Positions 56,813 through 61,979 of a stretch of 64,000 bases of DNA are shown here, piece after piece. Numbering within the stretch: the first letter of the stretch is position 1; the number at the start of each line of letters is the position of its first letter. Under the pieces are notes generated by a model. The model searched no databases. It was not told the origin of the DNA and saw only the letters and a list, made by a program, of their open reading frames with translations. Made by a program: the position numbers and the translations under genes. Source of the DNA: Tricharina praecox (taxonomy: Eukaryota); the NCBI RefSeq assembly GCF_024521635.1, contig NW_026250409.1:1178001-1242000 (forward strand). The letters are read 5' to 3'.

Positions 56813-57469
56813 CGTGAATGTGGTGGTGGTTGTTGGTTACGGTGAGAGGTGGACGGAGCTTGAGGACAGGTGGGTTTAGAGCATGTGTGGCTTCAGTTAG
56901 TGGGATGACACAGGGGAATGCTTGCGGTTAGTAGCTGAAATTATCCGATGCGAGTCGTCAATTATCACTCGTTCCCGAGTGTTGAAGTCAACTACAAATT
57001 TAGTGACAGGATTGCGTCGCTCGGCTATTAAGCCCATAATCGAGAGGATAGGATCAGCAGCGAGCCTACCGTAGCAGCCGTCGATGATTGACAGTCTGTG
57101 ACCATCCGGGACAAGAGCAAGACTACCCATTGAAGACATTGGATTCATATCGCGTACATAGCCCATATACGCCTAAGGAAACCCAATGCCCAAGAAACTC
57201 CAGGATATCAAGCCCCTACAAATAAGCAAATCACACATTATTCCCGAACGAAAGTCGGACGCTCATTCAATCCCGCCCATCCCCTACGCAAGCACAGTGT
57301 AGATCGCAAACAAGCAAAAAAACCACGATTGAAGAAACAATCAAGAGAAACAGACAAGAGAAACCCAGTTTATGTGAACACCTTAACACCTGCGATGCCG
57401 ACTCGTTTCGAAAAAGAAAAAAGGAAAACCCGACAATCGTTGCAGCATTATTTCGTTCATTACGAATGC

Positions 57470-59359
57470 TTACGCGATGTATTCGCCCTTGGCATTGGTG
57501 TTGGCAATCTTGATCCTCTTGCTCTTGTTGTTGTAAGACTCAGGAATGATCTTTGTCTTGTCAGCCGTATTCCTCACAAAATTGGCATGATTGCAAGGTG
57601 CTCACCTCAACGATCTCATTCCTGGGGAAGACCAAGCTGGGGATATCTTGGGTGGAGCAGGCCATCAGATATCCGTAAAGGACGCGGAGAACGCTCTCGT
57701 GGGCAATGATCAAAAGATCATTTTTCTCACGCTCCAATTCAAGGATGATGGGCTCCATGCGAACCGCCAAGTCATGGTAACTCTGCGAAAAAATTAGTCA
57801 AACTAGTTCTATCGGGTTGAAGATACAGGATGTCCATACCTCACCCCTCGGATACCTGTGATGGTAACTGTCCTGGAGGTGCTCCTCCCAATGGTCAGGG
57901 TAGTTCTTCCGTAGATCCGCATCGCTAAGCTTCCCCGCATCACCGGGGTTAAGCTGCGCCAACTGGGTCTTCTCCCGGATAGCAAAGCCCAAGTCCTTGA
58001 GGGGGGACGCAGTCTGCACGGTCCTGCGCCTGGTGCTGGTCCAGATGGTAAGACGCCGCAGTTCGGTCTCGCAACCTCCCTGCTCCAGGAACTGCTGGTG
58101 TTCCTGCTCACGGTGTCCCATGAGCGCATCGGCAAGACGCTTGGCGTACTTTTCACCTTCCTTGGACAAGCCAGCATCGGCCTTGTAGGAGTATTCCTCA
58201 TCGGAGCTTCCGGCACGCGCGAAGTAGGTCTTCCTGGACTTGATGTGCAAGTTCATCAGGTAAAACACAATGCGGTTGGGAAGATACCCAAACCGGCAAT
58301 TGTTGACATGATAACGCTGGCCAGCATTGATCATCTGGCGTCGCTCAGATCAGAATTTGCGCCGCTTGATGGATCAAAGTCGCTTACCTTGATGTAATTG
58401 AGATCTTTCTCTGCCATCGTCTCAAAATGCGGAATCTTGGCGTTCATCCTGCTGATGTAATGCGCCACCGCTTCGTCGGCGTTCCAACCAGCATACTGCA
58501 TAGTGAATTAGCATAGGTCTTTACGGACAGGTGAATTTTGTTGCTTACATCCGGAGATGAAATCTTGACGCTTCTCACGTTCTCCTCGATGATCGATTCA
58601 TCGTCGACGTACGACTCGATGAAGATGGTCTGGATCTCATGCTTGGCGAACTCCTTGGCCAGCTGCCTACGTCCCTCGGCGAGCGGATTGACAGCATCGT
58701 AAATCGCGATCTGACCCTTCTCGTGGTCGAAGAAGTGGTAAAGATCAAGCCTACACTTCTGGAGGATGGTCTGACGCAGCTTGACAGCCTCGGCAGAAGC
58801 TATAGGGAAACCGGTCAACAAAGAGTTTTTGCTCGCAAACATCATGGGAAACCATACCGTTGACGAAAAAGTAGTCATGAGGAACGTCCTTGCCGGGTCC
58901 CATATGCGCACGACGGTAATCACCGAGGTGGAAGGCGCGGGTCTTGACACCGAGCCTGCGACAGTCTTTAGCGAATGCGCGCAATATTACGGACCATGAC
59001 ACTTACCATCTCAGGTATCTCGTAAGCGCGACAGTGACGTGCCTGCATTCCCATCAGCTCCAACCAACCAACACATAACCCCACATCTCCCCGCGCCTAG
59101 AGGAAACATACGTCTTGCCCCTGGCGGGAAGTCCAACGGTTACGATAGCGATCTTGCCGGAGTGGAAAAGACGGCCTGACTCGGTAGCGTAGAGCTGGGC
59201 AGGCGCCATGGTCGAGTCATCGAGCTGGAGGTCGTGAATGGCGTCGATATTCACATTCGACTGGCGACGGTGGCGCAGGATGTTCGTAGCTCCATTCTCG
59301 ATGTTGTGGCTGTAGTCATTGGCAAAACCATGCCAGTCAGCAACTTGCGCGTTCTCCAT
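57470..59359 (-). CDS. 6-phosphofructo-2-kinase/fructose-2,6-bisphosphatase family protein (YLR345W-like clade), multi-exon
   Basis: APAQLYATESGRLFHSGKIAIVTVGLPARGKT P-loop, FHLGDYRR, RSVKISSPD|Y and FYLMNLHIK, then a histidine-phosphatase-like C-domain YHHRYPRGE|SYHDLAVRMEPIILELERE..IIAHESVLRVLYGY. Confidence 0.9.
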
Positions 59360-59671
59360 CTTGCAGTGTTGTGGAGTTTGAAAGTGAAGGTGGTGGCGAT
59401 GACGGTGGGGAGTGCAAGCAACCAGCTTGTAGGGAACGAGTGTGCTGCTAAGGAAAAGCGGGTTTCACTAGAGGTTGATGGCGCACTAGTAGCGACGAAA
59501 CCGGGGTTATGACGAATAGCGGGGACACGGGGGGGGGTGATTGTGTTTGCGTATCTCCGTAGAGTTGTCGCTGATGTGGGTGTGCAATTTGAGGTAGGTG
59601 AGGGTAGCAGGGCACGGCAGCGAGGGGGTGTGGAATGGGGGGTAGCGGGGGGAGAGAGGGAGGGGGTTCAA

Positions 59672-60111
59672 TTACGAGTAGTTGTCGTCCATTTCGTAAA
59701 ACAGCTGGTTGAAGACCTCGTTGAGGAGTTCGGGGCGCGGCAGATAAGAGGCGGGAGTGAGTGCGATAGTCGTCTGCGTCTGCAAAGAGGTGAGCCAATG
59801 AAACGGGCAGTCGGTCGTGTCAGGTACGGTCTGTGCTTGATCTGATCGCCGAGTTGTTCGGTGGTGGTGATGGTATCGGTGCAGCTCAAACGAGACGACC
59901 CTGCATTCCACAGCGTAGCGGAAGCGTCGCGATCGCGATAGAGGGTATATGTTTGTGTGATCTGTTTGACCGGACGCCGGATCGCCGAATTTGACTCGAT
60001 GATGTTTTCGTTTTCGCGAAGACAGCCGGGTGGGAACTTGGAGGAACTTACAGCGATGGCCAACTCTCCATTCTCCTCTCCCCTCATGCTCGGTTCGATG
60101 TCGGCTGTCAT
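59672..60111 (-). CDS. Putative spliced upstream ORF (55 aa) in the PFK-2/FBPase-2 leader. Exons 60111-60052 and 59779-59672
   Basis: ATG at 60111, phase-0 consensus donor GCT|GTAAGT at 60051, GCTCAC..TTTGCAG acceptor at 59780. The join gives MTADIEPSMRGEENGELAIATQTTIALTPASYLPRPELLNEVFNQLFYEMDDNYS*. Confidence 0.6.
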
Positions 60112-60615
60112 GGCTTGAGTTTCGGATGACGCTTATCGCGGTTATTCTGGCGCGGCTGTGCTTGAAGAACTTGGAGGGTGAAGTATGATCGGTGACGAGT
60201 ACTCTAGAGGATATGGTTGGTTGAGGTGGCGGCTATTGGATTTATAGACGCCGCACAGACGCCAGCAGCGTTTAGCCGCTAGCGCCAGGCGCAAGACAAT
60301 CACTCATCCCGCTTAGTAAAGCAGGGAACTAAGCACCCATCCCTACGCTACGCCCCCGCAGCGAAGCCGACAGAACGGGAACAGTGTCGAAAAAAGTTGA
60401 CTTCGGAGACCACAATCATCCAGCTCGCTTTGCTTCACCCTCTTAATCGACCCCCCGTACGGAACACCCCACCATACCCACCATCCACCTCGCCGCCTCC
60501 ATCCACATCACCCCAATTGCCTGTTGAGGGTTCCCCGGCATCGTAGGACCATTACTGACATCACACGCCGGACTCTTTGTTACCGATTTCCCCCACGCCG
60601 AATTGTACCGAAACA

Positions 60616-61979
60616 ATGTCGTCAACGATGGCTGATTCAAACCCCCTCGCCTTCCTTTCCGACAACCCGATATCCGCTGCCCTCGGCTCTCTGCAAGGCT
60701 CGTTCCGGGAACGGAGGCAGGCTTTGGGACTGAAGAACCCCGGCACCGTCGAGAACGTTTCGCGAGAGGTTCTGAAGGATGTGTTTTTGAACAACCACAC
60801 GTTTTCGGGCATGCGGGCGGATTTGATGAAGAGCTTCAGCATGAACCCAGTGTTCCAGATTTCGCATGCTTTCACCATGGGTGCCCAGGGAATGCCGCCC
60901 TACACGTTTGCCGCCGTCTTTGGAAACGATAAGGTTGGTGATCCCCCCACCCGCCCCGCATCCACATGCCCGCGCATATCTGGGTGCGTGGCAGAAGCAA
61001 TGGGATAAGAGGCTGTGTGTGCCGATTCTCAACCCCTCGGATCGGATCTCGATTCCCCGCAATTCCGTGGCGGGCACATGGGCGGTTGCGAGTTTTACTA
61101 CATTACGTCAGTGAAGCTAACCATATATGCATAGACTTTCATGCAAGCCACCGTCGACAATGACGGCCAAGTGGGCGGTCGCTTCAACTACAGATGGCTC
61201 CCAGGTGTGATCTCGAAGACCAATGTGCAGCTCGCCCCCGGCAGCACCCCTGGCCAGTCGGTCTTTACCACTGACGTCGACTACACCGGCGCCGACTTCT
61301 CCGGCTCGATCAAAGCATTCAACCCCTCGCTTCTCGACGGCGCCTTGACTGGTATCTTCATTGGCTCCTATCTCCAGGCCATTACCCCACGACTCTCGCT
61401 CGGTCTCGAATCGGTTTGGCAGCGTCCCGCCGCGTCACACGGCCCCGAGACCGCCTTGTCATATGTCGCGCGATACGTATCGGACGACTGGGTTGCGTCA
61501 ATGCAATTCCAGGGTCAGGGAGCTCTACAGGCAACTTTCTACAAGAAGATTGCAGACCGAGTGGAGGCTGGTGTTGACTGCCAGCTGACGTTCGCCGGAG
61601 GAATGGCACGGGGCGGTGGAGGTGGAATGATGGGCGGTGTGCGAAGAGAGGGCATCACCACTCTTGGTGTTAAATATGATTTCCGGAACTCTACTTTCCG
61701 CGCCCAGGTGGATTCGCAGGGAAAGCTGAGCTGCCTGCTCGAGAAGCGGGTTGCACCCGCTGTCACTCTGACCTTCTCGGCTGACATGGACCACGGCAAG
61801 GTAAGTTTCGTTCCTTGCAATGGCGGAAGAGGGCAGTGAAGCTAATGATCGATCTGTAGAATGCTGCCAAGGTTGGTCTTGGTGTGTCGGTCGAGGCTGC
61901 TCCCGAGGACCTGATGGAGATGCAAGAAAGGGCTGCGGCCGCAGGCGAAGTGCCCAGCACTCCCTCCATGCCCTTCTAA
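60616..61979 (+). CDS. TOM40: Mitochondrial import channel Tom40, 3 exons
   Basis: RRQALGLKNPGTVENVSREVLKDVFLNN..GMRADL..NPVFQISHAF, YTGADFSGSIKAFNPSLLDG..TGIFIGSYLQAITPRLSLGLE, KYDFRNSTFRAQVDS; ends SMPF*. Confidence 0.96.

Follow-up and report, generated by a model that had tools for sequence, protein, structure and literature searches.

The 64,000-nucleotide (nt) stretch of Tricharina praecox DNA analyzed here (NCBI RefSeq assembly GCF_024521635.1, contig NW_026250409.1, positions 1,178,001 to 1,242,000; hereafter the window) encodes a PFK-2/FBPase-2 enzyme on its minus strand. All coordinates of PFK-2/FBPase-2 features refer to that strand. Pfam places the N-terminal kinase domain 6PF2K (PF01591) on exon 58797-58549 (E 3.7e-20), with weaker partial matches on two other exons, and the FBPase-2 domain at the C-terminus, His_Phos_1 (PF00300), on exon 58334-57840 (E 8.2e-12). 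Orthologues of the enzyme also bear PF01591. The predicted protein combines a kinase with a histidine-phosphatase domain and is assigned to the bifunctional PFK-2/FBPase-2 family. The 5' region of the gene is a divergent intergenic spacer of about 1.25 kb shared with a Tom40-like gene (Pfam Porin_3), which lies upstream on the opposite strand from about 60616. A first-pass annotation of this region had proposed a free peptide of 55 amino acids (aa), encoded by a spliced upstream open reading frame (uORF) whose stop codon lies inside a splice donor, and a three-way splicing switch controlling PFK-2 translation. The evidence below indicates that the region very probably harbors a 5' exon that splicing joins in frame to the enzyme, and not a free uORF.

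Splicing of the 5' exon is documented by X1 and X2, two public runs from two studies, which contain 56-63% of the words of the region. Contigs of both runs were placed on 57200-60800 and have no letters differing from the window, except for one C absent at 59529. The missing C falls in a C-run of the collinear X1 contig and could be a strain difference or a homopolymer assembly slip. Eight joints were found on the gene, all with GT..AG ends on the strand of the gene, and together they restore one 486-aa frame. We treat X1 and X2 as complementary DNA (cDNA) because the eight introns are removed exactly. The most 5' joint, from 59676 to 59309, removes a GT..AG intron of 366 nt and occurs in one contig per run, with a mean word depth of 366 in X1 and 639 in X2. 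On the plus strand the same joint shows CT..AC ends. The other seven introns of the enzyme gene measure 51-69 nt, compared to 366 nt for the 5' intron. A single 2135-nt contig of X2 (record 5) holds the 5' exon collinearly and outright shows the 366-nt joint and five more joints. The two remaining joints are also on this contig, with short exons that are not among its listed pieces. The acceptor is the CAG at 59310, which lies 50 nt inside the open reading frame (ORF) that starts at ATG 59359 and reads collinearly into the enzyme. ATG 59359 is hence intronic in the dominant messenger RNA (mRNA). The intron removes this start codon together with the first 16 codons of the collinear form. An intron-containing contig was recovered as a minor form in X1, and no such contig was found for X2. 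No contig of X3 was placed on 57200-60800.

The DNA of relatives was compared through a metagenome scan, which confirmed 135 relatives, and 80 were kept as loci (L001 onward). L001 and L002 do not differ where they align, L003 represents another close relative, and L004 and L005-L009 are Wilcoxina-like and Tuber-like, respectively. The whole spacer between the Tom40-like gene and PFK-2 aligns to the window in L001 (73% identity) and L003 (78%), and in L004 the alignment is confined to the vicinity of the collinear start. The donor TCGTAATT, the ATGGAC at 59692, GACTACAG and the acceptor region are conserved among the window, L001 and L003. The candidate branch point CTGAC is kept in L003 and L004 and reads TTGAC in L001. 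The coordinates of all features are given in the table.

Table. Features at the 5' end of the PFK-2/FBPase-2 gene, in positions of the window.
Feature	Position	Strand	Remarks
Segment proposed as first exon (ATG 60111)	60052..60111	-	No RNA cover beyond 60058
5' exon of the dominant PFK-2/FBPase-2 mRNA	59676..60058	-	Collinear in X1 record 3 (59676-60053) and X2 record 5 (59676-60058)
Segment proposed as first intron	59780..60051	-	Unremoved in RNA contigs, collinear cover in both runs; splice-like signals conserved
Six-codon uORF (MQGRLV, stop)	59886..59906	-	First ATG (59906) of the modelled mRNA
First in-frame ATG of the RNA-supported exon	59690..59692	-	Gives M-D-D-N-Y-S before the junction; ATGGAC kept in L001 and L003
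Donor GTAATT with TAA 59674-59672 inside	59670..59675	-	Joint 59309/59676; TCGTAATT identical in L001 and L003
366-nt intron holding the collinear start codon	59310..59675	-	Removed in X1 and X2
Conserved intronic block CCCCGCTATTCGTCATAACCCCGG	59501..59524	-	Near-identical in L001 and L003, largely kept in L004
Collinear N-terminal coding stretch, MENAQVADWHGFANDY and first two bases of Ser	59310..59359	-	Intronic in the dominant mRNA
CTGAC, candidate branch point	59336..59340	-	26 nt before the acceptor, within the A-D-W codons of the collinear form; putative use
Collinear intron-containing contig, minor form	59280..59686	-	X1 record 2, depth 34 vs 366 for the spliced form
PFK-2/FBPase-2 coding exons and introns	57470..59309	-	Seven further GT..AG joints; stop TAA 57472-57470

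The sequence elements underlying the three-way switch all exist. ATG 60111 is followed by 20 codons up to GCT and the putative donor GTAAGT (60052/60051), and the matching CAG ends at 59780. Another 35 codons (TQTT...DDNYS) end in TAC TCG TAA, with the GT of the GTAATT donor at 59675. A TTAG ending at 59448 would be in frame with ATG 59359, over 90 nt including two donor-side bases. The proposal that this TAA lies inside a possible donor was borne out, as the donor is functional and used in one contig each of X1 and X2, and there is a collinear form whose TAA would be read. Removal of the stop and in-frame fusion to PFK-2 were likewise found, but through the acceptor at 59310 and not through 59448. 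The ATG 59359, which the fusion was thought to extend as the main start codon, is instead spliced out within the intron. No joint in the RNA reaches 59448, nor does any reach 59486 or 59468, from which an out-of-frame repressive ORF had been expected. The proposed first intron fared no better, as no joint connects 60052 to 59779 and both contigs run collinearly through it. The 5' exon spans this segment plus the C-terminal half of the 55-aa peptide. Between the window and L001, identity amounts to 82% in the segment, 79% in the peptide exon and 68% in the first part of the 366-nt intron, and the segment has indels whose lengths are not divisible by three. A conserved leader without coding function would explain this pattern no less well than an intron would. 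ATG 60111 lies beyond the contig ends at 60053 and 60058, and contigs cannot prove a 5' end. The branch point reported as unclear was sought further upstream, whereas CTGAC precedes the actual acceptor.

A free 55-aa micropeptide is also at odds with the reading frame and with the outcome of searches for relatives. The frame of the dominant mRNA has no stop and runs into the enzyme, and the ORF of the intron-retaining RNA, where the TAA is read, spans six codons from the first covered in-frame AUG rather than 55. A word search among 5.8 billion proteins with the 44-aa collinear reading of the peptide returned 0 matches. A search of 1.84 billion representatives gave four weak matches (E 4e-5 to 8e-4, 35-41% identity), all inside proteins of 615-1630 aa and none orthologous. 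An alignment of the peptide was possible in L001/L002 and L003 only, and there too it is joined to the enzyme by way of this donor; no free-standing relatives were found. Neither a separate ORF nor conservation across taxa was found, as a conserved-peptide uORF would show. A free uORF with a three-way switch is therefore highly improbable to us. The first-pass annotation had itself allowed for splicing in frame that would turn the element into an N-terminal exon, and this is what applies, with the acceptor at 59310. Because in-frame splicing is dominant, the proposal is reduced to an N-terminal exon. The earlier observation is partly confirmed and its interpretation partly supported.

The RNA-supported exons were joined into a modelled mRNA piece of 2097 nt. 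Its second ATG (59692) opens a PFK-2/FBPase-2 ORF of 486 aa. Orthologues were searched among 900 candidates, of which 879 proteins passed E <= 0.001, and counts given below refer to the best 120. The 486-aa product is 91.7% identical to P0003 (over 483 residues), 85.8% to Wilcoxina P0005 and 82.8% to Pyronema P0004 (both over about 480). The junction codon is TC/C (Ser), and the frame of the upstream peptide is carried into the enzyme. The leader of the dominant mRNA is about 366 nt long and contains one six-codon uORF. The ATG and TGA of this uORF keep their place in L001 (MQGLLF) and L003 (MQGHLY) and the peptide varies; this conservation across three close relatives is not significant. Depletion of ATG is not significant either in the leader (1 observed vs 3.7 expected, P 0.12) or in the intron upstream of 59359 (0 observed vs 1.9 expected, P 0.15). 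A stop right behind a phase-2 GTAA donor is a consequence of the letters of the donor itself and is unremarkable. The 5' contig ends of the two runs, 60053 in X1 and 60058 in X2, are 5 nt apart, while those of the Tom40-like gene in the same runs are 136 nt apart (60571 vs 60435). This hints weakly at a transcript 5' end near 60055. The leader also contains a palindromic ATCGCGATCGCGA motif (59927-59939, minus strand) that the window, L001 and L003 share without change and that could be a protein-binding site.

The N-terminus removed by the 366-nt intron is itself conserved. The nearest orthologues of the window enzyme among the best 120 of 879 are from Pezizomycetes. An N-terminus of the DW[HYF][GDN][FL] type, like MENAQVADWHGFANDYS of the window, is found in 9 of these 120, and all six named ones are Pezizomycetes. 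Wilcoxina, Tuber, Geopyxis and Rhizina are represented among them. Across Pezizales, the collinear N-terminus M..V.DWHGFA.DYS is conserved, and the metagenome loci L001-L009 encode it too. The dN/dS (ratio of nonsynonymous to synonymous substitution rates) over the 17 collinear codons is 0.17 between the window and L004, 0.26 between L003 and L004 and 0.56 between the window and L003. The collinear codons A-D-W and Y-S also hold CTGAC and the acceptor CAG, and the AG in the Ser codon at the acceptor position is kept in 9 of 9 loci L001-L009 (about five distinct sequences). The intronic stretch is thus predicted to encode a conserved protein N-terminus as well. P0003 has 495 aa on a contig of 1609 nt. 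We infer that this contig is spliced cDNA, because a gene with eight introns would be too long unspliced for 1609 nt, and that the collinear form is expressed in this close relative. The intron of the window also contains the block CCCCGCTATTCGTCATAACCCCGG, which is largely kept in L004, where the upstream exon is unalignable. It might serve the collinear form as part of a proximal promoter or of a leader.

These features could be taken to mean that the functional mRNA is the collinear one, made from a proximal promoter, and that the spliced form is a by-product with the upstream exon as read-in from the promoter region shared by Tom40 and PFK-2 and of no function of its own. The N-terminus shared across genera of the Pezizales is indeed the collinear one, the upstream exon aligns only in the closest relatives, and the intronic block reaches as far as L004. 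However, spliced contigs predominate in X1 and X2, no collinear contig was found for X2, L001 and L003 retain the donor, ATG and frame, and splicing yields an entire enzyme in frame. We consider a by-product very improbable.

We suggest an in-frame 5' exon with alternative N-termini, in which one decision would select between two N-terminal sequences. The decision is either the removal of intron 59675-59310 or the use of a start site inside the intron, and it would determine the N-terminus because ATG 59359 is intronic and the TAA lies inside the donor. In the spliced form, a long leader with a tiny uORF would precede an enzyme translated from ATG 59692 or further upstream, with six residues before the common part if ATG 59692 is used. 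In the other form, which might arise by intron retention or by a transcription start within the intron, the upstream frame would be stopped by the TAA embedded in the donor and the enzyme would start at ATG 59359 with an N-terminus of the DWHGF type. Everything from Ser-His-Asn onward would be common to both forms, including a conserved RRQS stretch, which we take to resemble a basophilic kinase site. Two RNA forms are present 5' of the common exon (X1 records 2 and 3, X2 record 5), and as judged by translation of the sequence they would encode one catalytic core with distinct N-terminal ends. The AUG used by ribosomes and a regulatory difference between the forms are inferred, and a proximal promoter may exist. 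The complete statement, with an in-frame 5' exon, alternative N-termini and a start at ATG 59692, is held with moderate confidence.

Several points weigh against this complete statement. No run recorded as RNA was listed for the region; X1 and X2 are marked 'RNA? (a guess)', and their nature as cDNA is deduced from the exact removal of 8 of 8 GT..AG introns. Transcript starts, ends and levels cannot be read from contigs, and the ratio of about 10:1 between the forms is rough and covers the conditions of two runs only. A functional difference between the two N-termini is presumed. A start at 59692 also leaves coding-like signals further upstream unexplained. Over the 21 codons 59746-59678, the peptide frame has dN/dS values of 0.23, 0.63 and 0.39 in the three pairs, whereas the two remaining frames give 0.84-1.31 and 1.86-3.02. 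The 35-aa exon of the window scores 8.7 bits on an upstream-exon profile of 42 peptides from other Pezizomycotina, which was built after a motif had been noticed. This score was reached by 1 of 5000 shuffles and by 0 of 2108 other 35-aa six-frame pieces of the window. The motif, RPE(L/I), is located 13-23 residues before the same junction in the upstream N-terminal exon of many Pezizomycotina orthologues, and 19 proteins have it in strict form. In the window it appears as YLPRPEL, 21 residues before the junction. The putative first intron also has conserved signals, with GTAAGT at 60051, CATTGGCTCAC and a YAG before 59780 kept in L001 and L003.

These signals raise the possibility of a longer N-terminal form, in which translation would begin upstream of 59692 and include the peptide in the enzyme, from an RNA that X1 and X2 miss or under-represent. 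The start could be ATG 60111 with the first intron removed, which would give a 55-aa extension and an ordinary N-terminus of three exons. Alternatively, it could be a near-cognate codon within the open frame of the unspliced leader. Of the three frames, that of the peptide gives the lowest dN/dS in every pair, the exon matches the 42-peptide profile, and its RPE(L/I) motif lies within the 13-23-residue range of those peptides. The ATG exon of L001 joins in frame, and in L003 a +1 indel is compensated by a second ATG that restores the frame. The frame leading into the donor is open for 185 codons (59676-60232, with no ATG before 59692), and only 4 of 5000 mononucleotide shuffles were as open. 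On the other side, the same frame is open for only 43 codons in L001 and 66 in L003, and the length in the window may be compositional on a C-rich strand. In both runs the proposed intron is covered collinearly with no joint between 60052 and 59779, and ATG 60111 lies outside the cover. Exon 60052-60111 is poorly conserved, as its ATG is aligned in L001 and replaced by GTG in L003, with a 32-nt gap in L001. The segment 59779-59747 has no codon bias or coding pattern and is frameshifted in L003, and counts by codon position between the window and L001 are weak (4/3/7). The sole near-cognate codon conserved in all three sequences, the CTG of Y-L-P, has a T at -3.

Other results of the profile speak against a longer form. 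A blind six-frame scan of the window gave E 1.5 for the exon, ranking it third by E-value and fifth by domain score among 2190 pieces, which is not significant. For 76 of the 80 loci, a profile scan of the upstream 1.5 kb found no equivalent exon outside L001-L003; the other four had too little upstream DNA and were excluded. A profile scan of 3 kb upstream of L004, L005, L008 and L009 also found none. By this profile, neither the Wilcoxina-like L004 nor the Tuber-like L005-L009 present such an exon. A profile match in L072 was rejected as an equivalent upstream exon, as it has no donor. The MART... start of Pyronema P0004 was dropped as an upstream-exon form, as a protein alone cannot show this. 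The first-pass view of a protein-like C-terminal half of the peptide holds to the extent that dN/dS and profile provide weak signs of coding. A longer N-terminal form is accordingly doubtful in our assessment, yet it is the alternative that might still account for these signs, and a start at ATG 59692 is retained as the preferred reading.

Annotated N-termini of the best 120 orthologues (P0003-P0122) are mixed, with 36 of an MDTLL type, 44 with a loose RPE-like upstream peptide, 9 of the DWHGF type and 31 others. The types vary even within Botrytis (P0030 vs P0033 and P0038). This mixture suggests unrecognized isoforms or systematic inconsistencies in annotation. In the more distant Pezizomycotina loci L013, L014, L044 and L074, only a few codons upstream of ...TAE/D... 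can be read in frame, and the reading ends just behind a branch-point-like CTRAC and a YAG. The arrangement suggests an intron at about the acceptor position of the window, and the junction may be old. A broader proposal is that Pezizomycotina orthologues of this PFK-2 share an old splice-coupled start switch. Such a switch would combine a translated RPE(L/I) upstream exon and a fixed phase-2 junction with a second, lineage-conserved N-terminus at the 3' end of the intron, of the DWHGF type in Pezizales and the MDTLL type elsewhere. We regard this as unlikely on present evidence. If true, intron retention would turn the upstream frame into a short uORF through the stop in the donor, and splicing would set both the N-terminus and translational efficiency, for example by carbon source.

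Further observations concern the neighborhood and the activity of the organism. The divergent Tom40-like (Porin_3) gene at 60435-61008 on the plus strand is kept next to PFK-2 in L001-L004. Between the Tom40 and PFK-2 RNA contigs lies an uncovered gap of about 376 nt (60059-60434 in X2); in X1 the part without cover is 60054-60570. The soil metatranscriptome X4 provided one contig of 205 nt on 58654-58912 that matches the window at >=99%, with intron 58800-58857 removed. Therefore, the organism of the window or a near-identical one is transcriptionally active in the soil sample of X4.

Regulatory uORFs encoding conserved peptides, such as the fungal arginine attenuator peptide, are ORFs in the 5' region of metabolic genes. 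The stop of the ORF in the window is instead spliced out, and the ORF becomes the N-terminus of the enzyme. Fungal thiamine pyrophosphate (TPP) riboswitches of the NMT1 type act on the splicing of a 5' intron with decoy uORFs. The PFK-2 gene of the window resembles them in that the start codon to be read depends on whether a long 5' intron is removed or kept. No Rfam match to a riboswitch or structured RNA was found in 59200-60450 with E up to 1, and the predicted folding of the intron is not better than that of shuffled sequences (z = -1.37).

The nearest parallel is mammalian PFKFB1 with its liver, muscle and fetal forms. Its several mRNAs share their common exons and diverge only in the first one, which encodes a short N-terminus of 32 aa vs 9 aa (PMC4178209). 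The N-terminal region is described there as regulatory, and the alternative first exons carry tissue-specific regulation (PMC4178209). The gene of the window shares the enzyme family and the alternative short N-termini on common exons. The phospho-serine of PFKFB1 lies in an alternative exon, whereas the RRQS stretch of the window lies in the common exon. Separate promoters are established for PFKFB1, while those of the two RNA forms in the window are putative. Unlike in PFKFB1, the second N-terminus of the window is encoded inside an intron and abuts the acceptor, and no orthology of exons is implied. In fungi, most Ascomycetes have three PFK2 genes whose functions are little known (PMC9721465). 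Passages of that paper treat separate genes and not alternative 5' exons of one gene. No description of alternative 5' exons of fungal PFK-2 was found in searches of an open-access library or in those passages, which is not proof of absence in print.

The result is a gene-model correction combined with a plausible arrangement of alternative N-termini, and it opens no new kind of mechanism. Collinear predictions starting with MENAQ... miss the form that is dominant in the RNA of X1 and X2. Interest would rise if the exon of the RPEL type and the intron-encoded N-terminus were an old, regulated pair across Pezizomycotina. PFK-2/FBPase-2 sets the levels of fructose-2,6-bisphosphate, and a fungal counterpart of PFKFB1 would provide a handle on the tuning of glycolysis in filamentous fungi.

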